Source: an uncultured Actinomycetes bacterium
GTDB lineage: Bacteria > Actinomycetota > Thermoleophilia > Gaiellales > Gaiellaceae
Assembly (NCBI GenBank): GCA_963826585.1
Contig: CAWGXP010000006.1
Coordinates: 11,299-75,298 of the forward strand
DNA: 64,000 nucleotides
Reading direction: 5' to 3'
Shown: positions 41,162 to 61,502 of the stretch, in pieces
How positions within the stretch are numbered: the stretch's first letter is position 1
How the letters are laid out: every line of letters begins with the position of its first letter
The notes under the pieces: model-generated
The model's input: only the letters and a program-made list of their open reading frames with translations
Database searches by the model: none
Told to the model about the DNA's origin: nothing
Program-made: the position numbers and the translations under genes

Positions 41162-41754
41162 TCAGGCGCCCCTGACGGCGGCGACGAGGGCGAGCGCCTC
41201 CGCGGACGGGACGGCGCCTTCGCGGAGGACGACGGGCTCGGCGCCGGAGAGGTCGAGCACGGTCGACGGGCACGCCCGGCAGCTCTCCGCCGTCGACGAC
41301 GGCGCCGCACGCATCGCGCAGCTCTTCGGGGACGTCGTGCGAGCGTGCGCGGATCCGGACCTCCATGCAGGTTCGCGCTCGTCGCCATCACCGCGCCCAT
41401 CTGTGCGAGCACCTCCGCGACGGCGCCGGTAACCGCCGGCACGCGGACGCCGATCGTCTCTGCGCCGAGCCAGGAGTAGCGCCGACCCGTGTTCTCGAAG
41501 ACGAGCGTGACCGGGCCTGGAAGGAGCGCGGACAGAACCGCCGCGGGAAGCTCCGGCACCCTCGCGAGCAACGCGTCGACCGAGCCGCGACGAGCGCCGC
41601 CGGCTGTCCCGCCGGCCGGCCCTTGAGCGCGTAGCGCCACCCGACATGCCGCCTCCGACTCCGCGTCGGCGCAGAGCCCGTAGACGGTGTCCGTGGGCAG
41701 GACGACGGGCCGGCCCGCGCGGAGCGCCGCGAGGGCGGCGGTTACGACGTCCAT
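41162..41754 (-). pseudogene. tsaC: L-threonylcarbamoyladenylate synthase (YrdC/Sua5 domain), at least three frame disruptions
   Basis: RPVVLPTDTVYGLCADA..., LLPGPVTLVF, IGVRVP..., ATSANLHGGPDP, and STVLDLSGAEPVVLREGAV (ORF 41162..41875 tail), spread over three frames. Confidence 0.8.
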
Positions 41755-42579
41755 CTGCCTTCGGCGACCCGGTCGCGCCCCGAGAGATCCGGAGTCGCGC
41801 GCACGTCGGAGAAGCCGAGCGCCTCGAGCAGCGCGCAGACGGTCGACGCCGTTCCTTCGGCGACCTCAAGAACAAGCCTGCCCGTCGGCCTCAGCACGTA
41901 GCGCGCGCCTTCGGCGACGAGCTGCGTAACGCCCTCGCCGACGAGCGCCCCGCGCGGCTCCCAGTCCCGCACCTCGGCCTGGAGATCGTCGACGTCCTCC
42001 GGCTCGACGTAGGGCGGATTCGAGACGACGAGGTCGAACGGCCCGGGAGGAAGCCCGCCGGCGAGGTCGCCCAGGACGAAGGTGACACGATCGCCGAGAC
42101 CGGTGCGCTCCCCGTTCGCGACGGCGAGCGTTAACGCCTCCTCGGAGATGTCGGTCGCCGTCACCGTCGCATCCGGCCGCTCGTCCGCAATCGCGAGCGC
42201 GATCGCGCCCGTCCCCGTGCCGACGTCGAGCACACACGGGCCCTCGACGCCCTCGAGCAGCGCGAGGCAGCGCTCGACGACGGTCTCCGTCTCGGGCCTC
42301 GGGATCAGCGCGCGCTCGTCGACGGCGAGCGTCAGCCGGCGGAAGCCCCATTCGCCGAGGATGTACGCGAGCGGCTCCCGCTTGCCCCGCCGCCGCACGA
42401 GCTCGCGACAGGCCGCGATCTCGTCCTCGGTCAGCTCGCGGTCGTACTGGAGATAGAGGTCGAGCCGTGTGACGCCGAGACCCTTCGCGATCAGGTGCTC
42501 CGCGTCGACGCGCGGGCTCGGAACTCCCTTCGCTTTCAGGAAGTCGGTCGACGCGAACGACGACCTCCGAGACGGTCAC
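41742..42579 (-). pseudogene. prmC: release factor glutamine N5-methyltransferase, one frame disruption near 42545
   Basis: [14 protein letters not shown] and VVSNPPYV motifs in ORF 41742..42398. The N-terminus (GTG 42579, VTVSEVV...) is out of frame with [27 protein letters not shown] overlap with the prfA stop. Confidence 0.85.
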
Positions 42580-43628
42580 CGAGAGGCAGCTTCGAGCGCC
42601 TGCCGCTGATCCTCGGCGGTGAGCGCGTCCGTGAACTCGTCGAGCTGGCCTTCGAGGATCGAGTCCAGACGGTGCACCGTGAGCTTGATTCGGTGGTCGG
42701 TGAGCGCGGTTCTCGGGGAAGTTGTACGTACGGATCTTCTCCGCCCGCTCGCCCGTCCCGATTTGCGCGCGTCGCGCGGCAGACGCCTCGGCCATCTGCC
42801 TCTGGTGCTCGAGCTCGTAGATCCGGGCTCGAAGGACACGCATCGCCTTGTCGCGGTTCTTGAGCTGCGACCGCTCGTCCTGCATGGCGACGACGATGCC
42901 CGGTCGGCACGTGCGTGATGCGGACGGCCGAGTCGGTCGTGTTCACGCTCTGCCCGCCCGGGCCAGTCGAGCGGTAGACGTCGATCTTCAGGTCCTGCGG
43001 GTCGATCTCGACGTCGACCTCCTCCGCCTCGGGCATCACCGCGACGGTGGCGGTCGAGGTGTGGATGCGGCCCTGGGACTCAGTCGTCGGGACGCGCTGC
43101 ACGCGATGCGTCCCGGCCTCCCACTTGAAGACGGAGTACGCGCCGTCGCCCTTCACGGCGAAGACGACACTCCTTCGTCCCGCCGCCGTCGTTCGGGCTC
43201 GCGGAGATCTGCTCCCAGCCGTAGCCACGGTGCTCGGCGTAGCGCGTGAGCATGCGGAAGATGTCCGCCGCCCACAACGCGGCCTCGTCTCCGCCGACTC
43301 CTTGCCGGATCTCGACGATCACGTCCTTGTGGTCGGCCGGGTCCTTCGCGACGAGGGCGAGCTTCAGCTCTTCCTCCACCTCGGCGAGCCGCGACTCGAG
43401 CTCCGGGACGAGCTCGCGGAGATCGCTGTCGTCGCGTGCGGCCTCGAGGTCCGAGCGCGTCGTGCGCCACTCCTGCGCGAGCTTGTTCGGTGCTTCGAGC
43501 TCCTTCAGCCGCCGTCCGGCCTCGGCCGCCTGTTTGTGGTCGTTGTAGACGGCAGGGTCCGACATGCGCGCCTGCGCCTCTGCATGCGAGCGCTCCAGCT
43601 CGTCGACGAGCGGTTCGAGGTCTGCCAC
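42576..43628 (-). pseudogene. prfA: peptide chain release factor 1, three 1-nt frame disruptions (about 42700, 42900, 43168)
   Basis: Pieces are in ORFs 43080..43628, 42536..43228 ([29 protein letters not shown]...[24 protein letters not shown]), 41866..42885 ([19 protein letters not shown]) and 42576..42839 ([14 protein letters not shown]). Confidence 0.9.
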
Positions 43629-43682
43629 CTGTCAAGCGTAACCGCCCCCTAACCCGAGCCGATCGACGCCGTCTACACAGAC

Positions 43683-44775
43683 ATGAGGCTGGTGTTCGCG
43701 AGCCTCTTGGCCGGCGCGGTCGTCGCAACGCCGTCGTCTCCCGGAAGGCTCCATCCGGCGGCGTCGATGAACGTGCCGCGGGCGGTGCAGACGGAGACGG
43801 CGCTCCAGGACGGCCAGGTGCTCGTGGCGGGCGGCTGCACCGTCCCCGGCTGCGATCTCGGAAGCCCCGGCAGCGACACCGCCGAGATCTTCGATCCGAA
43901 GAGCGGCCGCTTCAGGCCGGCGGGGAAGATGCACGGCTCCCGCGACGACCACGTCGCAGTCCTGCTCCGCGACGGCTCCGTGCTGCTCGCGGGCGGCTGG
44001 GGAGATAGACGCCGCCCGTCCGCTCGCGACGACTGAGCTCTACGACCCGCTGACCGCGACGTTCACCGTCGGGCCGCGCATGGACGTCGCACGGGCGGGT
44101 ATGGCCGCCGTTCTCCTGCGCAGCGGCCTCGTCCTGCTCGCGGGCGGGTTCACGGGCAGCAAGTCGACGACGCGGTACGCCGAGCTCTTCGATTCGGCGA
44201 TCAACACGCTGACGCCGACCGGGAAGATGACCGTGCCGCGCGGAGGCCAGTCCGCGGCGCTCCTTCCGGACGGTCGGGTGCTCGTCGCGGGCGGCCTGAG
44301 CAACGGACGTGCGGTCGCGTCCGCAGAGCTCTACGACCCACACACCGGCAAGTTCACAAGAACCGGCTCGATGACGACCGCCCGCTACAAGACTGCCGCG
44401 GTCACGCTACGGAGCGGCCGTGTACTCGTGATCGGCGGCTCAGCGGACATCGATGGCAGCCAGCTGTTCGCGTCGACCGAGCTCTACGACCCGCGCACGC
44501 GCAGCTTCCGCCCCGGGCCGACGATGCGCTTCGCGCGCTACAAGCTCACCGGCTCGACGGTCGTGCTGCCGGACGGGAACGTCCTCGTCGCCGGCGGGGC
44601 GCTCCAGGCAGAGCTCTACGACGCGTGGACGAGGACGTTCCGGCTGGTCCCCGGTCGGCTCGACCACACGCGCCTCTTCCTCACCGCGGCGGCGCTCCCG
44701 GGCGGCCGCGCGCTGCTCGTCGGCGGCTACGACAAGGGCATCACGCCCACGGCCGCCACCTGGATCTACCGCTAG
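43683..44775 (+). pseudogene. secreted Kelch-repeat beta-propeller protein, one frame disruption near 44000
   Basis: Signal-like N-terminus and repeated ...LPDGRVLVAGG...AELYDP...F... blades. ORFs 43683..44036 and 44080..44775 join through IDAARPLATTELYDP. Confidence 0.75.
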
Positions 44776-44803
44776 ATCGGCCGACCGAGCTGCTCTCGAA
44801 GAC

Positions 44804-44832
44804 TTGACAGGCGATCTCTCGCGATATATCGT
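44804..44832 (+). promoter_or_regulatory. sigma-A-like promoter TTGACA-17 nt-TATCGT, with palindrome CGATATATCG overlapping the -10
   Basis: TTGACA at 44804-44809, TAnnnT-type hexamer at 44827-44832, and a perfect 10-bp palindrome at 44822-44831. AAAGGAGAA and ATG 44858 follow. Confidence 0.5.
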
Positions 44833-44857
44833 AACCGATCGCAAGAAAGGAGAAACA

Positions 44858-45484
44858 ATGACTTCAACCACAGTTCCATACCCGTTCCCCCGCGGCAGAC
44901 GCCGCCCGGCGCACGGGATCCTCTTCATGACAGACGACCGGCCCGCGCACCGTCGGCGGCGCAGCGGCCGGGGATGGGGCCCTCGCGGCCACGGCGGACA
45001 ATTCTTTGGAGGACGCCGGGCGCGGCGCGGGAACATCCGTACCGCGATCGTCACCCTCCTCGCGGAGAGGCCGATGCACGGCTACGAGATCATGAGTGAG
45101 CTCGCGGAGCGCAGCGGCGGCGTCTGGCGCCCGAGCCCAGGCTCGGTGTACCCGACGCTCCAGCTGCTCGAGGACGAAGGCCTCGTCGAGCCCGCCGAGT
45201 CCGAGAGCGGGCGCCGCGTGTTCCAGCTCACGGCCACGGGCAAGAAGGAGGCATCAGCGCACACCGGCCCGGCACCGTGGGACGCTGTCGGCGCGGAGGC
45301 CGACGATGCGATCGTCGAGCTTCGCGAGCTCGTCTTGCAGGTGCTCGAGGCGACGCGGCAGGTAGGCCAGGCCGGCACCGCGCGGCAGATCTCCGCAGCG
45401 CAGGACGTCCTCCGGTCGACGCGCAAGAGCCTGTACCGCCTGCTCGCCGAGGACGAGTCGCCCGAGACCGACGAGAGCGCGTAG
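44858..45484 (+). CDS. PadR family transcriptional regulator
   Basis: LLAERPMHGYEIMSELAERSGGVWRPSPGSVYPTLQLLEDEGLVE is a winged-helix PadR signature. An Arg/Gly-rich N-terminal tail precedes it. Confidence 0.85.
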   Translation: MTSTTVPYPFPRGRRRPAHGILFMTDDRPAHRRRRSGRGWGPRGHGGQFFGGRRARRGNIRTAIVTLLAERPMHGYEIMSELAERSGGVWRPSPGSVYPTLQLLEDEGLVEPAESESGRRVFQLTATGKKEASAHTGPAPWDAVGAEADDAIVELRELVLQVLEATRQVGQAGTARQISAAQDVLRSTRKSLYRLLAEDESPETDESA

Positions 45485-45497
45485 CGCTCGCCAGACC

Positions 45498-45526
45498 CGT
45501 GGGCGACGGAGATACTGTCGCCCACG
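45498..45526 (+). promoter_or_regulatory. 10-bp stem-loop with GGAGA in the loop, ending 1 nt before the ATG of the first cyclase-STAND gene
   Basis: CGTGGGCGAC (45498-45507) pairs with GTCGCCCACG (45517-45526). The loop is GGAGATACT. ATG at 45527. Confidence 0.45.
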
Positions 45527-48500
45527 ATGGTCTGTCCTACGTGTGCGACGGAGAACCAGCCCTCCGCGAAGTTCTGCGTGGAGTGCGGCACTGGGCTGGC
45601 GCTCGCGTGTCCCTCGTGTGGCGCGCCGCACACCGCGGGCCAGCGCTTCTGTGCGGAATGCGGAAGTGCGCTCTCCGGTGCACCGGCGGAGGCGCCCGCG
45701 GCAGAGCGCGAGGCGCCCGCTTCCGAGCGGCGTCTCGTCACCGTCCTCTTCGCCGACCTCGTCGGCTTCACCGCAGCCTCGGAGCACCGCGACTCAGAAG
45801 AGACGCGTGAGCTCCTTTCGCGCTACTTCGACGCATGCCGGCGCCTGATCGAGCTCTACGGCGGCACGGTGGAGAAGTTCATCGGCGACGCGGTGATGGC
45901 TGTCTGGGGAACGCCCACGGCAACGGAAGACGACGCGGAGCGCGCCGTCCGCGCGGCACTCGACCTGGTCGCCGCGGTCTCGGCCCTTGGACAGGAGTCC
46001 GGCGCCGAGGAGCTGCGCGCCCGCGCAGGTGTGCTGACCGGCGAAGCTGCGGTCACGATCGGCGCCGAGGGCGAGGGCATGGTCGCGGGCGATCTCGTGA
46101 ACACCGCCTCGCGCGTGCAGTCGGTCGCCGATCCCGGCACGGTCTTCGTCGGAGACTCGACCCGGCGCGCGACCGAGCAGACGATCGTCTACGAGGACGC
46201 GGGCTCGTTCGAGTTCAAGGGCAAGGAAGGACTGACCCCGCTCTGGAAAGCGCAGCGCGTCGTCTCCGGCCTGCGCGGCTCACTCAAGTCGCACGGTCTC
46301 GAGGCGCCGTTCGTCGGCCGTGACCGCGAGCTGCGCCAGATCAAAGACCTCTTCCACGTTTCGGCCGAGGAGCAGAAGGCCCATCTCGTCTCCGTCACGG
46401 GCATCGCCGGCATCGGCAAGTCCCGTCTCGCGTGGGAGTTCTACAAGTACTTCGACGGCATCGCGACGACCGTCTACTGGCATCGCGGACGCTGCCTCTC
46501 CTACGGCGAGGGCGTGACGTACTGGGCGCTCGCGGACATGGTGCGCATGCGCTGCCGCATCGCCGAGGAGGAGGACCCGGAAAGCGCGAGGGGGAAGCTC
46601 CACTCCACGCTCGAGGAGCTGATCCTCGACGCCGAGGAGCGCGAGTTTCTGGAGCCGCGGTTGGCGCACTTGCTCGGACTCGCCGAGCACCAGGCCCGCG
46701 ACCAGCAGGATCTCTTCGCAGCGTGGCGCCTCTTCTTCGAGCGCCTGGCCGAGAGCTATCCGACGGTGCTCGCGTTCGAGGACATGCAATGGGCGGACGA
46801 GAGCCTGCTCGACTTCGTCGAGTCGCTCGTCGACTGGTCGCGAAATCATCCCATCCTCGTGATCACGCTCGCGCGGCCGGAGCTGCTCGAGCGTAGGCCG
46901 ACCTGGGGCGCCGGCCAGCGGAGCTTCACCTCGCTCTACCTCGAGCCGCTCTCGCCGTCTGCGATGGAGGAGCTGCTCGGCGGCCTCGTGCCCGGCCTGC
47001 CGGCGGAGGTACGCGACCGCATCCTCGCGCGCGCCGAGGGCATTCCGCTCTACGCGGTCGAGACCGTCCGCATGCTGCTCGACAGGGGGTTGCTCGTTCA
47101 GGACGGCGCCACCTATCGGCCCACCGGCGAGATCGAAGCCCTCGAGGTGCCGGAGACGCTGCACGCGCTCATCGCCGCCCGACTCGACGGCCTGTCCACC
47201 GAGGAGAGACGGCTGCTCCAGGACGCCGCCGTGCTCGGCAAGACATTCACGCGAGAGGCGGTCGCGGCGCTGACCGGTGCCGACGCCGACATCGAGCCAC
47301 TGCTGGCCGGGCTTGTCCGCAAGGAGGTGCTCGGCATCCAGGCGGATCCGCGCTCGCCCGGAGCACGGCCAGTACGGCTTTCTCCAGGATCTCGTGCGCC
47401 ACGTCGCGTACGAGACGCTCTCGAAGCGCGAGCGCCGTGTCCGGCATCTCGCGGCAGCTGCTTACTTGAGCGCCGCATTCGCAGACGACGAGGACGAGGT
47501 CGTGGAGGTGATCGCGTCCCATTACCTCGCCGCCCACGAGGCCGCTCCGGACGCCGACGACGCCGCCGAGATCAAAGCCAAGGCGCAGGCGATGCTCGTC
47601 CGCGCCGGCGAGCGCGCCGGGTCGCTCGCAGCGGCGTCGGAGGCACGCCGCTACTACGAGCAGGCTGCGGCGCTCGTCGAGGAACTGTCCGAGCAGGCTG
47701 CGCTTCTCGACCGCGCGGGCCAGATGGCCGCACTAACAGGCGATCCCGACTCGGCTCGAACGCTCTTTGAAAAGTCGATCGAGCTCTACGAGAACCTGGA
47801 CGACGCGCACGCCGCCGCTCGCGTCCTGTTCAGGCTCGGGAGGGTCGACGTCCGCACGGGCCGCCGCGACGAGGCGATGACACGGCTCGAGCGTGCCTAC
47901 GAGGTGATCTCGCGCGACGAGCCCGACGAGGACCTCGCGCTCTTGGCAGCGGGTCTTTCGCTCGGCTACTGGTTCGGCGGCGATCTCGAGCGAGCGGCGG
48001 AGCGAGCCGAGCTGGCGCTCGATATCGCCGAGGCTCACGCCTTTCCCAGGGCGCTCGCGATTGCGCTCCGGGCTAAGGGTGCCGTCGTCGGGAGTCGCGG
48101 CCACGGCGTGGAAGCGGGTGCTCTCGCCAAGCAGGCTCTGCAGATCTCGCTCGACCACGACCTGATCGACGACGCGAGCGTCTGCTACTTCATCCTCTCC
48201 GACTGGTGCTTCCATCGCGACGAGTACGCCGCCGCGCTCGAGTACCTCGACGAAGCTCTCGCCCTCTCGCGAAAGGTCGGCAACCGCCCGTATGAATGGG
48301 CCGTCCTCGCGGAGCGAACGCACCCGCTCACGATGCTCGGAAGGTGGGACGAAGCGCTGGCGGAGGAACTCACGCAGGAGCAGGTCGACTCCGGAGGCAT
48401 CGTCTTGAGCCTGCTCCAGTCGGCCGTCGACATCAACGTTCAGCGCGGCGAGCTCGACGAGGCGCGCCGCATTATCGCCATGTTCTCAAAGCTCGAGGAC

Positions 48501-49004
48501 ACGACTGATGTCCAGGATCGCAGCTCCTACCTGGCCTCGCGGGCGGAGTTGCGGCGGGCCGAGGGGCGACTCAAGGAAGCACTCGACGACGGCGAGGCCA
48601 CGATCGCGACCGGTCGCACGCTCGGCATCTCTTCGCAGTCCGTAAAGCAGGCAATCGTCGAGGCGGTCGAGGTGGCAATAGCGCTTGGTGACCAATCGAA
48701 GGTCGAGGAGCTGCTCGCACTCATCGAGAGCATCCCCTCTGGCACACGCCCGCCCTATCTCGACGCCCAGGCGAAGCGCTTCCGGGCGCGGCTGGACGGC
48801 GATGCAGCGGGCTACGACGTTGCCTCTGGTGTCTTCCGGGAGCTCGGCATCCCCTTCTGGCTGGCAGTAACGCTGCTCGAACACGCCGAGCTGACCGGCG
48901 ACGAGGAATCGCTCATCGAGGCGCGGGAGATCTTCGAGGGTCTCAAGGCGACGCCCTGGCTCGAGCGCTCTGAAGCTGTCGCCAAAGCGGAGGTGATGGC
49001 GTGA
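45527..49004 (+). pseudogene. double zinc ribbon / class III nucleotidyl cyclase / STAND (AAA_16) ATPase / TPR protein, copy 1; one extra C near 47358 as sequenced
   Basis: CPTC...CVEC...CPSC...CAEC; cyclase motifs VLFADLVGFT, KFIGDAVMAVWG, GDLVNTASRVQS; Walker A GIAGIGKS; Walker B-like VLAFEDMQWADESLL. The TPR-like C-terminus lies in ORF 47277..49004. Copy 2 has TCGCCGGAG where copy 1 has TCGCCCGGAG. Confidence 0.85.
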
Positions 49005-52000
49005 CCTGTGCGGTCTGCGGTCACGCGAACCGCGAGGAGCAGAAGTTCTGCGGCGAGTGCGGGTCGCCGCTCGAGGCAGGGTGCCCGGCGTGTGGCTTTC
49101 AGAACCCGCCGGGGCAGAAGTTCTGCGGCGAGTGCGGGACGGCGCTCACGTCCGTCCCTGCGGCGTCGCCACCGAAGGCGCCCGCTCCGCAGCCGGCGTC
49201 GGAACGCCGGCTCGTGTCCGTCCTCTTCGCCGATCTCGTCGGCTTCACGACGCTCTCCGAGAGCCGCGACGCCGAAGAAGTGCGTGAGCTCCTGTCGCAG
49301 TACTTCGACCTCGCGCGCACGCTGATCACGCGCTACGGGGGCGAGGTGGAGAAGTTCATCGGCGACGCCGTGATGGCCGTGTGGGGCGCTCCGACTGCCA
49401 CCGAGGACGACGCCGAGCGCGCGGTGCGAGCGGCGCTCGATCTCGTTGCCGGAGTGCCGGAGCTCGATCCAGCGCTTCAGGCGAGGGCCGGCGTCTTGAC
49501 CGGCGAGGCCGCCGTGACGATCGGGGCGCAAGGCCAGGGCATGGTCGCCGGCGACCTCGTCAACAGCGCGTCGCGTGTGCAATCGGCAGCCGACCCCGGA
49601 ACGGTCCTCGTCGGCGAGTCGACCAAACGTGCGTCGGAGCAGGCGATCGCGTACGAGCCCGCCGGGGTGCACGAGCTGAAGGGGAAGGCCGAGCCTGTCG
49701 AGCTCTTTCACGCGCTTCGCGTCGTCTCCGGCCGCCGTGGCGATTTGAAGTCCGCCGGGCTAGAGGCGCCGTTCGTCGGCCGCGACCGCGAGTTGAAGCT
49801 GATCAAGGACCTCTTCCACGCCTCGGCGGAGGACCGGCGCGCGCACCTTGTCTCGGTCACCGGCATCGCGGGCATCGGCAAGAGCCGCCTGGCGTGGGAG
49901 TTCTACAAGTACTTCGACGGCATCGTCGAGAACGTCTGGTGGCACCGCGGCCGCTGCCTCGCATACGGGGAGGGCGTCGCCTACTGGGCGCTGGCCGACA
50001 TGGTGCGGATGCGCTGCCGCATCGCCGAGGACGAGGACGCAGCCTCGGCGCGGACGAAGCTCCGGACGACGCTTTCGGAGCACCTGCTCGACGCGGAGGA
50101 ACGGGACTTCGTCGAGCCTCGCCTCGCACACCTGCTCGCGATCGAAGAGGGGTTGAGCGCCGACCGTCAGGACTTGTTCGCCGCCTGGCGACTGTTCTTC
50201 GAGCGGCTGGCCGATTCCGGACCGGCGGTGCTCGCGTTCGAGGACATGCAGTGGGCCGACACAAGCCTGCTCGACTTCATCGAGTACTTGCTCGAGTGGT
50301 CGCGCGACCACCCATTGTTCGTGATCACGCTTGCGCGTCCTGAGATCCACGACCGACGCCCATCGTGGGGGGCGGGGCAGCGAAACTTCAGCGCGCTCTA
50401 TCTCGATCCGCTCTCCGAGAAGGCAATGCACGACCTGCTGGACGGCCTCGTCCCCGGATTGCCGGCGCGACTCCGCGACCAGATCCTCGCGCGTGCCGAG
50501 GGCGTGCCGCTCTACGCGATGGAGACCGTCCGCATGCTGCTCGACCGCGGCCTGCTCGAACAGGCCGGAGCCGTCTACCGGCCAACGGGCGAGATCGAGA
50601 CGCTCGATGTCCCCGAGACGCTCCACGCGCTCATCGCCGCGCGCCTCGACGGCCTCACGACCGAAGAGCGGCGGCTGCTCCAGGACGGAGCGGTGCTCGG
50701 CAAGACGTTCACGAAGACGGCCATCGGGGCCGTGTCCGGCCTCCGCGAGGCCGAGCTCGAGCCTCTGCTCTCGTCGCTAGTCCGCAAGGAGGTGCTGGGC
50801 GTCCAGGCCGACACCCGGTCGCCGGAGCACGGGCAGTACGGCTTCCTCCAGGATCTCGTACGGCACGTCGCCTACGAGACACTCTCGGCGCGAACGGAAG
50901 GCGCGCCACCTCATGGCCGCCGACTACGTCGAGCAGGCGTTCGGGGACGTCGACGAGGTCGCCGAGGTGCTCGCATCTCATTACGTCGCCGCCTTCGACG
51001 CGATGCCCGACGCCGACGATGCGGCCGAGATCCGGGCGCGAGCAAGGGAGATGCTCACGCAGGCAGGTGATCGTGCCGCGTCGCTCGGAGCTCCGGAGGA
51101 GGGGCAGCGCTACTTCGAGCAGGCCGCCGAGCTCGCCGACGACATCGCCACGGAAGCCGCGCTGGTCGATCGGGCGGGCAGGCTCGCCGCGCCCGCCGGA
51201 CGGCTCGCCGAGGGACGCGAACGCCTCGAGCGGGCAATCGAGCTCTACGAGCAAGCGGGAGATACGAGCTCTGCTGCGCTCGCCAGCGCCGCTCTCGGCG
51301 ACATCGATGTGCTCGAGGGCAAGCTCGAGCAGGCCGCGACCCGCTTCGACGCGACCTTGCCCACGCTCGAGGAGAGGGGGTCAAGCGCCGAGCTCGCAGC
51401 CACCCTCGCGCAGCTCGGACGGGTGCAGGCGCTGAGAGGCGAGCGCGAGCAAGCGCTCGTCACCCTCGACCGCGCACTTCAGCTCGCCGAGCGCCTGGGG
51501 CTCGACGAGGTGCTCGTGCAGGCGCTGACGAGCAGGGCGATTAGCGTCATCTACGAAGGCCGCTTCGTCGAGTCGCGGGTCCTACTCGAGGCCGCGGTCG
51601 AGCTTGCCGACGAGCGCGAGCTAAACGCCGCCTGGTTCCGAGCCGCGGGCAACCTCAGCGTCATGCTCCAGGACTCGGATCGCTACGGCGAGTGCATGGA
51701 GTTCATCGACTCGATCGAGGCACGTGCCCGGCAACTCGGCGACCGGGAGCAGCTCGCGGCGACCCGCTTCGGCTGCGGCTCCGTGCTCATCGCCATGGGT
51801 CGCTGGGACGAGGCGCTCGAGCGCGAGCAGGAGGCAGACCTTTTCGAGGCAAGCGCGTTCTCCCGGTCAGAGCTCGTCGACCTCGTTCGTGTCCGGTGCG
51901 AGCGGGGCGAGCTCGAGGCGGCCGAGGAGATGCTGCGTGCCCACGAATGGATGCGCGAGGCGGAACAGACCGAGATCTCCAGCATGATCCACTCCTGCGA

Positions 52001-52511
52001 GGCACGGCTCCTGCGCGCCCAGGGCCGGGCAGCCGAGGCGTTGGCGGCCGGCGAGCAAGGGCTCGCCCACCTCGACGAGCTGTCGATGACGAGCATCCGT
52101 ATCAAGCTCAGCCTCATCGAAGCGCTCGAGGCTGCGTTCGTGCTCGGCGACCTCGACCGGGTTGGCGTGCATCTCTCGACCATTGAGCAGCTCCTGCCGG
52201 GAGAGGTGACACCGCTCCTCCGTGGGCACGGCGCACGGTTCCGCGCGCTTCTTGACGCGCGGCGCGGACAGGACGAGGCTGTGGAAGGCAGCTTCCTCCT
52301 GGCGGAGGCGACCTTCCTCGAGTTCGACATGCCGTTCTACCTCGCCGTCACACAGCTCGAGCATGCCGAGTGGCTCGCCGGGCAAAATCGTCCGGCCGAA
52401 GCCGAGCAACTCCTCACCGAGGCGCGAGAGACGTTCACGCGGCTCGAGGCAGCGCCCTGGCTCGAGCGGGTCGATGCCGCGGCGCCGAAGCGCGTGGAAG
52501 CGCCTGCCTAG
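49001..52511 (+). pseudogene. double zinc ribbon / class III nucleotidyl cyclase / STAND (AAA_16) ATPase / TPR protein, copy 2; one extra base near 50887 as sequenced
   Basis: Same architecture as copy 1: CAVC...CGEC...CPAC...CGEC, VLFADLVGFT, KFIGDAVMAVWG, GDLVNSASRVQS, GIAGIGKS. The GTG start overlaps the copy 1 stop (GTGA). The C-terminal half is in ORF 50913..52511. Confidence 0.85.
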
Positions 52512-52942
52512 CTCGCGAGTCGCGCTTCGAGCAGGATCTCGACGTTGCCCTTGAGCGCGCCCGAGACGGGGCAGTTGTCGCGGGCGCCCTCGGCCGCCGC
52601 GACGAACGCCGCCTCGTCGATGCCCGGCACGGTGCCCGTCACGTCGAGCTTCATCTGCGTGATGCCTGTACCGGGGACAAACGTCGACGTGGCCGTGACG
52701 TCGAGCTTGTCGGGCGGGTTACCGGCCTGCGCGAGGCCGTGGGAGAGCGCCATGCAGAAGCACGATGCGTGTGCCGCCGCGATCAGCTCCTCCGGGCTCG
52801 TTCGGCCCGACTCGTCGGGCTCGGAGCGCGAGGCCCACGTCACCTCGAGCCCCCCGATCGCGCCGCTCCCCGTCGATTCGATCAACCCGGAGCCCTCCAT
52901 CAGGCTCCCGCTCCATGTCACGTGCGCAGTTCTCTCAGCCAC
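52508..52942 (-). CDS. osmC: OsmC family peroxiredoxin
   Basis: TSPEELIAAAHASCFCMALS...ARDNCPVSGAL, with two conserved Cys. Confidence 0.88.
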   Translation of the reverse strand: MAERTAHVTWSGSLMEGSGLIESTGSGAIGGLEVTWASRSEPDESGRTSPEELIAAAHASCFCMALSHGLAQAGNPPDKLDVTATSTFVPGTGITQMKLDVTGTVPGIDEAAFVAAAEGARDNCPVSGALKGNVEILLEARLAS

Positions 52943-52999
52943 GTTCCCTCCTCCGACGGGATCGGGGACAGGATGAATCCAGTCCCCGATGCAGATTGA

Positions 53000-53911
53000 C
53001 TAGGCCATCACTTCGACGCGTTCCACGCCGACCGCCGTCTTCTCGTGCTCCAGGACTTCCTCGAGCGCCCGGATCGAGACCTCGAGCTGCTCGAGCGTGG
53101 GCTGGCGCGTCGTCAGCCGCTGGAGCCAGAGCCCCGGGGCGAGCAGCGCCATCACCCAGGTGTTGTGCTGGTGCTTCCCTGCGAACCGGATCACCTCGTA
53201 GGCGAGACCGGCGATCACCGGGAGCATGAGGATGCGGCTCGCGATCAGCCAGTACCAGTGCGGCCGGCCGAACGCCGCGAAGACGAAGATCGCGATCACC
53301 ATCACCCACAGGAGAAACGCCGTCCCGCAGCGTGGGTGGATGAGGCTGAAGCGCTGGACGCGCTCGGGCGTCAGCTCCTCGCCGGCCTCGTAGGCGTTGA
53401 TCGCCTTGTGCTCGGCTGCGTGGTACTGGAACAGCCGCCGGAGATCGGGCAGGAGCGAGATCAGGAACAGGTAGAGGATGAAGATGCTGACGCGGATCAG
53501 CCCCTCGACGACGACGAACGCCTGTGTCGAGCCGAGATCGAGCTGGCTCGTGATCAGCGCCGGGCCGACCTTGAACAGCGCGATCGTGAACCCGATCGCG
53601 ATCGCAAACGCGAAGATCAGCTGGCCGCGGCCGAGCTCGAAGTGCTCCGCGTCCTCGTCGTCCGCGTCCTCGGGCTGCGCGGCGTAGTTCGCCGAGATGG
53701 CGAGCGCGCGAAAGCCGATCGCGAGCGACTCTCCAAGGGCAACGATGCCGCGGATCACCGGCAGCCGGTAGATGCGCCGCTTCGCCATCGGCGACGAGAT
53801 CACGCGGCAGACCTGCGCGATCTCCCCGTCGGGCTTGCGCACGGCCACGGCCCAGTTCCCGGGCGTGCGCATCATCACGCCCTCGAGGACTGCTTGCCCT
53901 CCGACTGTCAT
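53000..53911 (-). CDS. DUF1385 domain-containing membrane protein
   Basis: GGQAVLEGVMMR...YHAAEHKAINAYE...IHPRCGT signature. Confidence 0.85.
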   Translation of the reverse strand: MTVGGQAVLEGVMMRTPGNWAVAVRKPDGEIAQVCRVISSPMAKRRIYRLPVIRGIVALGESLAIGFRALAISANYAAQPEDADDEDAEHFELGRGQLIFAFAIAIGFTIALFKVGPALITSQLDLGSTQAFVVVEGLIRVSIFILYLFLISLLPDLRRLFQYHAAEHKAINAYEAGEELTPERVQRFSLIHPRCGTAFLLWVMVIAIFVFAAFGRPHWYWLIASRILMLPVIAGLAYEVIRFAGKHQHNTWVMALLAPGLWLQRLTTRQPTLEQLEVSIRALEEVLEHEKTAVGVERVEVMA

Positions 53912-54127: not shown

Positions 54128-55067
54128 GGGCCTCGGCGAGGATAGCAGCAGCGACCTTCGGGTCAGCGTTGCCTCCGGACACGATGGCGACCACCGTCTC
54201 GTCCGGGTCGAGCGCGATCTTGCCGGCGAGCAACGCGGCCGTCGACGTCGCGCCGGCTGGCTCGCACGCGAGCTTCGCTCGAGCGTAGAGGAAGCGCATC
54301 GCGTCCTTGATCTCGTCTTCCGTCACGAGCACGACGTCGGAGACGCGGTCACGGACGACCGACAGGGTGTGCTCCCCCGTGAACGGCGCGCCGAGGCCGT
54401 CGGCGATCGAGCGCGGCTGGATCTCGATAGGCCGACCGGCTTCGAGTGCCCGGGCCATCGTCGGCGCGAGCTCGGGCTCGACGCCGACGACACGGCAGCC
54501 CGCCGCCGAGGCGATGCCCGCGATCAGCCCGCCGCCGGCGATCGGGACGACGATCGTCGTCGTCTCCGGTGCGTCCTCGAGGATCTCGAGCGAGATCGCC
54601 CCGTAGCCGGCCTGGAGCACGGGATCGTCGAATGGATGGACGAACGTCGCGCCCGTCTCCTCGACGAACGCGAGCAGACGGTGATGCGCCTCCGCCGGGC
54701 CTTCGGACTCGAGGTCGACGTCGGCCCCGTAGCCGCGGCAGGCGGCGATCTTGATCGGGTTGGCCGTGCGCCACATGAAGACGCGGCAGGCGATCCCCAG
54801 CTCTCGCGCAGAGAACGCGGCGCCGGCCCCCGCGTTGCCCGCCGACCAGGTGACGATGCCGCGCGCCTTCTCGTCGGCCGTGAGCGAGGCAAGCTTCGCG
54901 AGCATGCCGCGGGGCTTGAACGAGCCGGTGCGCTGGAACAGCTCGGCCTTGAGGTAGGCCTCTGCACCGATCCGATCCGCCAGCGCGCGTGACGAGAAGA
55001 GCGGCGTCCGGTGCAGCCGCCCGCCGATCGCCTCGCGCGCGGCGAGGACGTCGTCGTGCGAGATCAC
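54117..55067 (-). CDS. PLP-dependent threonine/serine dehydratase (fold type II)
   Basis: GSFKPRG PLP-lysine motif and GNAGAG. GTG 55067 overlaps the ETF-QO stop (GTGA). The 3' end overlaps rpmE by 11 nt. Confidence 0.85.
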
Positions 55068-58490: not shown

Positions 58491-58566
58491 CGGGCAGAGA
58501 CTCTAACGGCGGAGGAAGCGGCAGCCCCTGGTAGGCTGCTGCCCTTCGCGCGTCACACGACGGATC

Positions 58567-59596: not shown

Positions 59597-60357
59597 TCAA
59601 CGGCCGGTGAAACGGGGCTCGCGCTTCTCGATGAACGCGCGCATGCCCTCCTGCTGATCCCCGCTCCCGAAGAGCCCGGCGAACGCCTCAGCCTCCGCGC
59701 CGAGGTCGCCGTGGAATGTCCGCGCCATCGTGTCCTTGATCGCCGCGAGCACGAGCGGGCTCTTCGCAGCAAGCGTTCGGGCGAGCTCGAGCGCCTTCTC
59801 CATCAGCTGCTCGGGCGCGAAGACCGCGTTGACGAGCCCGATGCGAAGCGCCTCTTCCGCGCCGACGAGCCGGCCCGTGAGGATCAGCTCCTTCGCGGGG
59901 CCGATGCCGACGACGCGCGGCGAGCCGCTGCGTGCCGCCCCAGCCGGGGATGATCCCGATCGAGACCTCGGGCTGGCCGAGCTTGGCCGTCTCTGCCGCG
60001 TACCGGATGTCGCACGCGAGCGCGAGCTCGCAGCCGCCGCCGAGCGCGAACCCGTTGATCGCCGCGATCGTCGGCTTCGGCATCGTCTCGAGCAGCGACG
60101 CCGTCTCGTGGCCGAGCCGCCCCACGCGAACGGCCTCGTCGCGGCTCATCTCCGCCATCGCCTTGATGTCTGCGCCTGCGACGAACGCCCGCTCGCCGGC
60201 GCCTGTCAGCACGACGACGTGCACGTCTCCGTCCGCGGCGAGCTCCGACGAGCCGGTCGCGAAGCTCCGTCAGCGTCGCCGGTCGAGCGCGTTCATCGCG
60301 TCCGGACGGTCGACCGTGACGACTGCGACGCCGATCGTCGCGCTCGACGCGGATCAC
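59597..60357 (-). pseudogene. enoyl-CoA hydratase (crotonase family), about four frame disruptions
   Basis: [47 protein letters not shown]...[19 protein letters not shown] (ORF 59688..60224), and the C-terminus in ORF 59597..59803. Confidence 0.8.
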
Positions 60358-60752
60358 GCCGTCGGCACGCGCTCGCGGAGGAAGTCGACGATCGCGCCGG
60401 TCGTCGAACCCGGCGTGAAGATCGCCGCCACGCCGAGCTCCTCGAGCTCCTTCGCGTCGTCGCCCGGGATCGTGCCGCCGACGATCACGAGCACGTCGTC
60501 GGCCTCGTTCTCGCGCAGCAGCTCGAGGATCCGCGGCACGAGCGTCATGTGCGCGCCGGAGAGGATCGATATGCCGACCGCGTCCGCGTCCTCCTGGATC
60601 GCCGTCTCGACGATCTGCTCTGGAGTCTGGTGGAGACCCGTGTAGATGACCTCCATGCCCGCGTCGCGCAGCGCGCGCGCGATGATCTTCGCGCCGCGAT
60701 CGTGCCCGTCGAGGCCGGGCTTTGCGATCACTACCCGTATCTTCCGCGTCAC
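60354..60752 (-). CDS. methylmalonyl-CoA mutase B12-binding small subunit
   Basis: GTG 60752. [33 protein letters not shown] contains the DxHxxG cobalamin motif, followed by GISILSGAH. Confidence 0.88.
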
Positions 60753-60773
60753 TCGCCGCGTCAGTATAGGAGC

Positions 60774-61502
60774 ATGAAGTTGACCGTCGTGGGGTCGAGT
60801 CCCGCGTGGCCGAACCCCGGCGGCGCCCAGTCCGGCTACCTCGTCGAGGGGCCGGGACGGCTCCTGCTCGACTGCGGCCCGGGCGTGCTCGCGCGGCTGC
60901 GCGAGCTGAACGGCGGCTGGCCGCGCGTCGACTCGGTCGTGATCACGCACTGGCACCTCGACCACTGGGGCGACCTCGTCCCCTGGGTCTGGGGGAACAT
61001 GGTCGGGCCGGGCAAGGGAACGGACCAGCCCGAGCTCTGGCTGCCGCCGCAGGGGCGCGCGCGAATCCGTGACTTCGGGACGCGACTCGGCTGGGAGGAC
61101 ATGTTCGAGTCGACCTTCGAGGTGCGCGACTACGACGAAGCTGTTCCGTTCACGACGGCCGCCGGGCTCGAGGTCGTCGCCATCCGGCTCCCGCACTACA
61201 CGCTGCGGACGTACGGCCTTCGCGTCTCGAACGGCGACCACACGCTTGCGTACTCCGGCGACTCGGGCCCCGACGCGAAGCTCGCGGAGGTCGCGCGTGA
61301 CGCGGATCTCTTCGTCTGCGAGGCGACGCTGCTCCGCGGTGAGCTCGACGGCAGCCCGCGCGGACACCTGTCCGTCGATGAAGCCGTCGAGGCGTTCGAG
61401 GCGTCCGGCGCCAAGCGGCTCCTGCTCACGCACCGCCCGAACGAGCTGCCGGCGCCAGACGGCTGGGAGCTCGCCTACGACGGCCTCCAGATCAGCCTCT
61501 AG
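60774..61502 (+). CDS. MBL-fold metallo-hydrolase
   Basis: ATG 60774 inside track ORF 59730..61502. Contains [13 protein letters not shown] (HxHxDH) and SGDSG. Confidence 0.8.

Follow-up and report, generated by a model that had tools for sequence, protein, structure and literature searches.

Two genes lie head to tail between positions 45527 and 52511 on the + strand of a 64,000-nucleotide stretch of DNA from an uncultured Actinomycetes bacterium (the window, to which all coordinates refer), and each is interrupted by a change of reading frame. Do these genes, here named A and B, still encode functional proteins, and if so, what do the proteins do and why are there two of them? Both combine a double zinc ribbon, a class III nucleotide cyclase domain, a STAND (signal transduction ATPases that have numerous domains) module and a C-terminal half made of tetratricopeptide repeats (TPRs). 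From the analysis as a whole, we consider it reasonably probable that A and B are signalling enzymes in which the STAND module gates the synthesis of cyclic AMP (cAMP) or another cyclic nucleotide (cNMP), that they form part of a translationally coupled operon controlled by a PadR-family regulator, and that their frameshifts are errors of assembly.

An overlapping pair of genes

Four long open reading frames (ORFs) occupy the region (45527-47770, 47277-49004, 49001-51070 and 50913-52511), and their translations show each consecutive pair to be a single gene broken by a +1 frame change. Repair of one frameshift per gene gives proteins of 1158 (A) and 1170 (B) residues with no internal stop, laid out as follows.

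45527-49004, + strand: gene A, 1158 aa after removal of one base at 47357-47360
45533-45667, + strand: zinc ribbons of gene A
45722-46261, + strand: class III cyclase of gene A
46307-46864, + strand: AAA_16 nucleotide-binding oligomerization domain (NOD) of gene A
46865-47447, + strand: putative helical/winged-helix region of gene A
47448-49001, + strand: TPR region of gene A
49001-52511, + strand: gene B, 1170 aa after 2 nt are restored after 50887
49007-49138, + strand: zinc ribbons of gene B
49208-49693, + strand: cyclase of gene B
49769-50326, + strand: AAA_16 domain of gene B
about 50946-52508, + strand: TPR region of gene B

The genes are joined by a GTGA overlap (49001-49004), in which the TGA stop codon of A (49002-49004) shares bases with the GTG start codon of B (49001). 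A GGAGG sequence lies 7 nt 5' of this start, within the last codons of A, and the N termini of the two proteins can be aligned (MTCAVCG in B, MVCPTCA in A). An earlier reading of this DNA from its letters (the first-pass annotation) had described a tandem of ~1160-aa genes with a GTGA stop/start overlap, a description that the ORFs and the frameshift repair bear out.

Frameshifts in A and B

The same annotation suspected indels near 47358 and 50887, and one frame-breaking lesion per gene is found there. For comparison we used L001, a 2.06 Mb metagenomic contig from a close relative with 93-94% DNA identity to the window.

47357-47360, + strand: frameshift site of gene A, one extra base in TCGCCCGGAG, from alignment with copy B and the L001 ortholog
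50885-50890, + strand: frameshift site of gene B, CTCTCG^GCGCGA against CTCTCGAAGCGCGA in A, from alignment with A

The L001 ortholog of A lacks the extra base, and the repaired A junction (...ADPRSPEHGQYGF...) fits the invariant family columns R609, P611, E612, G614 and Q615. Gene B is short of 2 nt (or has 1 nt in excess) after the TCG at 50885-50887, and its repaired junction (...YETLSKRERKARHL...) agrees with the family consensus YETLSKRERRxRHL. Both sites sit in peptide motifs that are invariant or nearly so across the family, invariance being judged here and below in an alignment of 69 sequences.

Housekeeping proteins of the window are 95-99% identical to those of L001, and their genes show similar damage. 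Relative to L001, the gene for the essential release factor, prfA, contains three frameshifts (four frame segments), sua5 two (three frame segments) and an enoyl-CoA hydratase gene (59922-60756) one (two frame segments). The 4.4-kb block from upp to prfA, in which sua5, prmC and prfA lie on the - strand (41268-43167), has eight single-base indels, or approximately one per 550 bp. The L001 cyclase gene has an assembly-type frameshift of its own at another position, and the homologues retrieved from short-read assemblies are all uninterrupted, at about 1160 aa. Because the lesions in A and B match the local error rate seen in prfA, sua5 and the other indels, they are most likely to be assembly indel errors, and on this comparison both genes are most probably intact. 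The window assembly being indel-prone, any frameshift in it should be regarded with suspicion.

If the frameshifts were genuine, A and B would be pseudogenes, the decaying remnant of a paralogue family redundant enough for the loss of a gene to be tolerable. In keeping with this, each gene has exactly one frame-breaking lesion, the two lesions lie ~20 codons apart in homologous positions, that of B resembles a 2-nt deletion, and one copy is gone in relatives. We nevertheless consider decay unlikely: the same assembly divides essential prfA into four frame segments and carries other indel-rich housekeeping genes, and the L001 copy is itself frameshifted elsewhere in the manner of an assembly error. 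Apart from the single lesions, every invariant family residue is kept in both genes, the correct frame is free of premature stops, and GC at third positions stays high throughout the ORFs, in the manner of genuine genes.

Domain architecture and catalytic residues

Pfam searches with the frameshift-repaired proteins recovered the succession of double zinc ribbon, class III cyclase, P-loop STAND module and TPRs given in the first-pass annotation. Matches were obtained to DZR/Zn_ribbon (residues 3-47), Guanylate_cyc (PF00211, residues 69-236; 80.7 bits for A and 75.7 bits for B, cut-off 21.9), AAA_16 (residues 261-446; 85.1 and 82.1 bits, cut-off 32.6), and TPR_12 and further TPR families in the C-terminal half, with an additional weak TPR_MalT match in B. 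The same searches found no helix-turn-helix (HTH) domain, GerE or other, in A or B, consistent with the earlier statement that the pair has no LuxR-type or other DNA-binding domain.

The eight cysteines of the zinc ribbons are invariant save C31, which is nearly so. Class III cyclases of solved structure match the cyclase domain at E about 1e-22, with 2w01 (Cya2) as the best of them, and the register of the motifs was verified against the Cya2 alignment. The metal-binding aspartates D77 (FADLVGFT) and D121 (IGDAVM) and the transition-state pair N192-x3-R196 are present in both proteins and invariant in the family, as is the substrate lysine K117. The second substrate-specifying position is an invariant methionine, M185, rather than the canonical aspartate, and aligns with a glycine of Cya2; K117 with M185 is neither of the canonical substrate pairs (Lys/Asp for ATP, Glu/Cys-type for GTP). 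The claim that all catalytic signatures are intact thus stands for the metal aspartates and the Asn/Arg pair and fails at M185. On these sequence features the cyclase looks catalytically competent, with an uncertain nucleotide preference.

In the STAND module, the invariant residues include K298 and S299 of the Walker A motif GIAGIGKS (G295-S299), E418 and D419 of the Walker B motif VLAFEDMQWAD, P507 of a GxP-like GIPLY motif, and H625 in the predicted winged helix. An AlphaFold (AF2) model built from the family alignment has a mean predicted local distance difference test score (pLDDT) of 75, with values above 90 for the TPR solenoid (630-1153) and intermediate values for the NOD, which is followed by helices and a β-hairpin of moderate confidence (residues 468-630). 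The full-length model is informative for the TPR solenoid and part of the NOD; in the PDB its fold comes closest to that of 6mfv, a STAND-TPR protein, and otherwise matches generic TPR solenoids.

The PadR gene and its putative promoter

Directly upstream of the pair is a PadR gene, as the first-pass annotation had it, accompanied by the following features.

44804-44832, + strand: promoter-like TTGACA-17-TATCGT upstream of PadR, from a consensus scan
44822-44831, + strand: perfect palindrome CGATATATCG overlapping the -10 element of the PadR promoter, from an inverted repeat scan
44858-45484, + strand: PadR-family regulator, 208 aa, Pfam PadR 76.9 bits
45491-45534, + strand: RNA hairpin in the PadR/A intergenic region, core stem GTGGGCGAC (45499-45507) with GTCGCCCAC (45517-45525)

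The regulator has an Arg/Gly-rich N-terminal extension, scores below the cut-offs of the NCBIfam PadR models, and is 86% identical to the PadR of L001 and 78-81% identical to that of another locus, L002. The promoter-like sequence is the one site found by the consensus scan, against 0.4 expected by chance in the region scanned; AAGGAGA and then the start codon of PadR come after it and the palindrome. TTGACA, the palindrome and AAGGAGA are all kept in L001 and in L002, where the PadR gene and its cyclase gene lie in a different neighbourhood. The palindrome is a candidate PadR operator, and an autoregulated PadR operon would fit, because promoter and palindrome are conserved even in the different context of L002. 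By these signals PadR, A and B are probably co-transcribed from an autoregulated promoter, with the gene for PadR, presumably a repressor, as the first of the putative operon. The idea that the family as a whole has PadR for a partner was rejected, linkage of PadR to the cyclase being found in the window, L001 and L002 only.

The hairpin has a predicted folding energy of -33.9 kcal/mol (z = -5.2; a stability reached by none of 200 shuffled sequences), encloses a GGAG sequence and pairs part of the AUG of A; it is identical in L001 and different in L002. As folded, it could act as a terminator without a U-tract or as a translational attenuator. An Rfam scan over 43500-53200 returned nothing meaningful.

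Proposed mechanism and cyclic nucleotide output

Domain logic and the behaviour of known STAND proteins and class III cyclases suggest how such proteins might work. In the resting state, the NTPase would keep the protein closed. Binding of a ligand or partner protein to the fast-evolving TPR region, and possibly to the zinc ribbons too, would permit nucleotide exchange and oligomerization of the conserved core, and oligomerization would join two cyclase domains as the dimer required for class III catalysis. The product would be a cyclic nucleotide. Retention of the substrate lysine K117 makes cAMP the likeliest one, with a specificity left uncertain by the partner residue M185. Proteins that bind cNMPs and are encoded at other loci would receive the signal in trans. 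Translation of B would be coupled to that of A, and the copies would share an output and differ in the inputs that they sense. If this is true, the organisms concerned would draw their regulated cAMP or cNMP mainly from these proteins, which would also offer a simple setting in which to examine STAND control of an enzyme that needs to dimerize.

A possible receptor is encoded on two related contigs, where a B ortholog lies close downstream of a fusion of a cNMP-binding domain with a thioredoxin-reductase-like pyridine-nucleotide-disulfide oxidoreductase (L085:241-1929 and L086:2938-4608; 556-562 aa), itself preceded by a sigma-70 family gene. The oxidoreductase gene adjoins the B ortholog in L085 and is separated from it by a BNR-repeat gene in L086. 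This arrangement ties the family to cNMP signalling and makes the oxidoreductase a candidate trans receptor of the cyclase product; its gene is absent from the window. A gene for a metallo-β-lactamase (MBL)-fold protein at 60780-61499 was tried as an Apyc1-like cNMP phosphodiesterase and dismissed as a generic MBL fold (17 bits against a cut-off of 50).

Several points weigh against the proposal of a STAND-gated cyclase in a PadR-controlled operon. M185 occupies the place of the adenine-reading aspartate and makes the product uncertain; the enzymatic activity, oligomerization and ligand binding of this subfamily are predictions. In the AF2 model the cyclase domain is mispredicted, with pLDDT below 50. 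No cNMP-binding domain was detected in the window by tblastn and phmmer with three such domains, a search of limited sensitivity that agrees with the first-pass annotation, in which no cNMP receptor was seen nearby. Linkage to PadR is confined to the closest A orthologs (window, L001 and L002) and is absent from all 80 of the genome loci whose neighbourhoods were sampled, as well as from the related loci L087, L089 and L091. Finally, the frameshifts are assigned to assembly error by comparison with L001 and other homologues, and the 2-nt deletion that the B lesion resembles is less typical of homopolymer errors.

M185 also gives rise to a different reading, in which the cyclase makes a product other than cAMP (cGMP, cCMP, cUMP or products of relaxed specificity) or serves mainly as a dimerization module. 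An invariant methionine stands where an aspartate would read adenine N6; the closest solved sequence is Cya2, a guanylyl cyclase; and Rv0386 of Mycobacterium tuberculosis, with a non-canonical Gln/Asn pair, reportedly has both adenylyl and guanylyl cyclase activity. A preprint attributes such dual activity instead to the related Rv2488c (10.1101/2024.03.06.583649). Against this reading stands the invariance of K117, the two metal-binding aspartates, N192 and R196, which speaks for an active enzyme and, by way of the lysine, for the recognition of a purine (ATP-type). We regard another product, or a mainly structural role, as distinctly unlikely.

Relationship to characterized proteins

The closest characterized relatives of A and B are Rv0386, Rv1358 and Rv2488c of M. 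tuberculosis, with which they share an N-terminal class III cyclase, an AAA_16/MalT-like NTPase and a TPR-like region within a large cytoplasmic protein. They differ in having no C-terminal LuxR/GerE HTH, as do all 41 sampled relatives (described below), and in carrying an N-terminal double zinc ribbon, which the mycobacterial proteins are not known to have. Their substrate pair is Lys/Met, where that of Rv0386 is reportedly Gln/Asn, and their family is found in translationally coupled arrays. The three mycobacterial proteins, encoded by mclx genes, are described as a class IIIc cyclase followed by a STAND/LAL (large ATP-binding LuxR-type) ATPase, TPRs and a LuxR HTH (10.1101/2024.03.06.583649; PMC4452763).

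The best NCBIfam match is to the TOMM (thiazole/oxazole-modified microcin) kinase/cyclase fusion model TIGR03903, of which positions 276-1210 (cyclase, ATPase and TPR) correspond to residues 59-993. The score of 244.6 bits is far under the cut-off of 705.75, and the Ser/Thr kinase at the N terminus of the model (positions 1-275) is unmatched, its place being taken by the zinc ribbons; A and B also have no TOMM biosynthesis context. The top Foldseek match of the predicted structure in the PDB, PH0952 of Pyrococcus horikoshii (6mfv; E 4.8e-8, 746 aligned columns), suggests the domain order of the 6mfv/MalT clade, namely NOD, helical domain, winged helix and TPR sensor. TM-scores are low (0.18 and 0.29), no solved STAND core could be matched by sequence to that of A and B, and the effector is a cyclase, not a DNA-binding domain.

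Divergence of A and B

A and B are 56% identical overall, with 48% identity in the zinc ribbons, 75% in the cyclase, 77% in the NOD, 79% in the putative helical and winged-helix domains (HD/WHD) and 34% in the TPR region. These values come close to the by-eye estimate of the first-pass annotation, which had set a core of ~75-80% identity against diverged TPR halves. The contrast recurs between A and its L001 ortholog, which are 94-100% identical over residues 1-600 and 56-83% identical over residues 700-1100. Synonymous divergence (dS) and its ratio to nonsynonymous divergence (dN/dS) between these two orthologs were as follows.

N-terminal columns 0-620: dS 0.30, dN/dS 0.06
C-terminal columns 620-1178: dS 0.82, dN/dS 0.22

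These ratios indicate that both halves are under purifying selection, and they give no gene-wide signal of positive selection between A and the L001 ortholog. Because dS is raised in the C-terminal half as well, recombination rather than positive selection is favoured there, and the TPR half is probably less constrained and exchanged by recombination. TPR solenoids usually evolve faster than enzyme cores, and by alignment the contrast between core and TPR region is a property of the entire family.

A recent tandem duplication was rejected as the origin of the pair, A and B belonging to separate orthogroups at 56% identity. Among the matches listed, the best are 82-85% identical to A and, over the full length, 74% identical to B; by these comparisons A and B are two old paralogues.

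Genomic site and history

Upstream of the pair, the window holds in order an atp operon, a glycosyltransferase gene, upp, glyA, sua5, prmC and prfA. The Kelch-repeat gene, PadR, A and B lie between prfA and OsmC, and beyond B come OsmC, DUF1385, rpmE, a PALP enzyme, ETF-QO (electron transfer flavoprotein-quinone oxidoreductase) and ETF alpha/beta. At the same site, L001 has prfA, PadR, a single A ortholog and OsmC; L087 and L088 (prfA about 80% identical to that of L001) have prfA, a carbonic anhydrase gene, an A ortholog and OsmC; and L094 (prfA about 85%) has prfA, a single cyclase gene and OsmC.

The pair had been placed in a 9.4-kb insertion. An insertion or island was rejected, since a family cyclase occupies the interval between prfA and OsmC in L001, L087 and L094, and the material extra to L001 consists of the Kelch gene and copy B only. 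Occupied in these relatives too, the interval is an old home of the family, and a variable-island location gives way to synteny between prfA and OsmC-DUF1385-rpmE.

The L094 gene (L094:8001-11495, protein P0132) is a recombinant of A and B. From residue 1 to ~150 it is 80-90% identical to A against 45-58% to B; from "AVPELD-PALQ" on, it is 82-96% identical to B against 50-80% to A. Unequal crossing-over within a tandem would leave exactly this product. To judge from the sequences, these lineages therefore probably inherited the A-B pair from an ancestor, and each of them later resolved it in its own way. The single L001 gene was also considered as an A/B recombinant at its extreme 3' end, an idea dropped with the tails too short and variable. 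B orthologs elsewhere are solitary.

The stop codons of gene B and OsmC are convergent and share the palindrome CTAG (52508-52511). The same CTAG junction with OsmC is found at the single A ortholog of L001, and by coordinates L087 and L094 have an equal 4-nt gene overlap with OsmC.

43683-44775, + strand: Kelch-repeat protein gene between prfA and PadR; Pfam Kelch_6, Kelch_1 and Kelch_4

The Kelch gene is split by a frame change near 44036-44080 (43683-44036 and 44080-44775), and its protein has a signal-peptide-like N terminus. Neither L001 nor any of the 80 genome loci gave a tblastn match to it, and it probably lies outside the cyclase system.

Family size and tandem arrays

Searches with A and with B each returned at least 8000 candidates, and the best 120 matches of each were full-length proteins with the same Pfam set. 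The best matches come from metagenome-assembled genomes of Gaiellaceae and Solirubrobacteraceae, and homologues bear database names such as "class 3 adenylate cyclase/TPR repeat protein", "adenylate/guanylate cyclase domain-containing protein" and "AAA family ATPase". The STAND core alone (aa 246-700) retrieved 7,880 clusters at 50% identity (E <= 1e-30). In 41 sampled representatives, AAA_16 was present in every one, Guanylate_cyc in 38 and DZR in 31, with GerE/LuxR in none. A scan of species-representative genomes yielded at least 592 confirmed loci, spanning Gaiellales, Solirubrobacterales, Acidimicrobiia, Dormibacterota and Chloroflexota.

The architecture is thus very common, not least in Thermoleophilia of soil, and already annotated, and the pair is real but ordinary; its novelty had been overstated. 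The first-pass annotation had also entertained a ubiquitous core-genome feature with an already assigned regulatory role: the family is indeed widespread and syntenic, and it has no assigned function. A literature search returned papers on the mycobacterial relatives only, and none on the subfamily with zinc ribbons and no HTH. Members without an HTH are thus absent from the literature found despite the size of the family, which is among the most expanded signalling architectures of abundant, mostly uncultured soil Actinomycetota.

Whether tandem pairs recur, a question left by the first-pass annotation, is answered by the sampled neighbourhoods: in at least 9 of the 80 loci (L004, L015, L033, L039, L043, L045, L055, L056 and L059), between two and four copies follow one another on the same strand. 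Six of these arrays contain nine junctions that consist, as between A and B, of a 4-nt overlap (ATGA or GTGA). In the seven neighbour pairs examined, all ORFs were intact, with identities of 48-64% in the zinc ribbons, 63-83% in the core and 30-40% in the TPR region. How sensor repertoires expand and collapse can be seen from these coupled arrays taken together with the A/B recombinant that occupies the prfA/OsmC site in L094. L002 has a second cyclase-AAA_16 gene (L002:21279-23486) at a distance of ~9 kb from its PadR and cyclase genes; next comes a TPR gene of its own (515 aa), which points to either a split architecture or another assembly frameshift.

Possible co-assembly of A and B and possible roles in conflict

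Translational coupling raises the possibility that A and B form an obligatory hetero-oligomer, in which coupling matches their amounts and different sensors co-assemble through the core to give one cyclase output. The ATGA or GTGA overlaps at nine junctions in six arrays of two to four paralogues would suit such an assembly, as would the NOD/WHD core being the most conserved part between neighbours (63-83%) and the established action of class III cyclases as dimers. Both copies, however, keep the full set of catalytic residues, so that neither needs a complementary partner, unlike C1/C2-type heterodimers. Only one copy is present at this site in close relatives, B orthologs found elsewhere stand alone, and the overlap junction may be mere inheritance through unequal crossing-over. 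An obligatory partnership therefore seems improbable to us. Very unlikely, in our estimate, is the broader idea that the coupled arrays encode mixed STAND assemblies, a recombining receptor repertoire like that of nucleotide-binding leucine-rich-repeat proteins (NLRs) with one cNMP output, possibly of unusual specificity (Lys/Met).

The first-pass annotation likened the pair to NLR/Avs-type sensors. As conflict sensors, A and B would recognize phage or competitor proteins through their TPR region and send a cNMP alarm to effectors in trans. The layout of STAND module and repeat sensor is of this kind, and the paralogues have expanded and turn over by recombination; between close relatives the TPR half is 56-83% identical when the core is 94-100% and neighbouring proteins 95-99% identical, and the cyclase domain matches PycC models. 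The last likeness reflects a common class III cyclase fold (best PADLOC match PDLC00734, 67.6 bits, residues 39-197) and holds at the level of the domain only: A and B are proteins of about 1160 aa with STAND and TPR regions, and they adjoin Kelch, PadR, OsmC and DUF1385 genes, not a cNMP-activated Toll/interleukin-1 receptor (TIR) or transmembrane (TM) effector as in Pycsar.

PADLOC searches of A and B gave only PycC cyclase-domain and generic TPR matches, with no Avs/NLR model, and searches of the neighbouring PadR and Kelch proteins gave nothing relevant and no effector match. The model match, cell-killing effector and defence-island context of Avs and other bacterial NLR-like STAND proteins are thus lacking here. 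In four lineages the locus keeps its place with housekeeping genes around it; the TPR half has a dN/dS of 0.22, with dS raised there too (0.82 against 0.30); and B orthologs beside a sigma factor and a cNMP-binding oxidoreductase have a regulatory context. The NLR/Avs analogy finds no specific support in these results, and a role in conflict appears to us highly improbable.

Two larger differences from L001 lie outside the cyclase locus: a 20-bp deletion at 55055, near the PALP/ETF-QO boundary, and an 88-bp deletion at 58553, upstream of an M23 peptidase gene.

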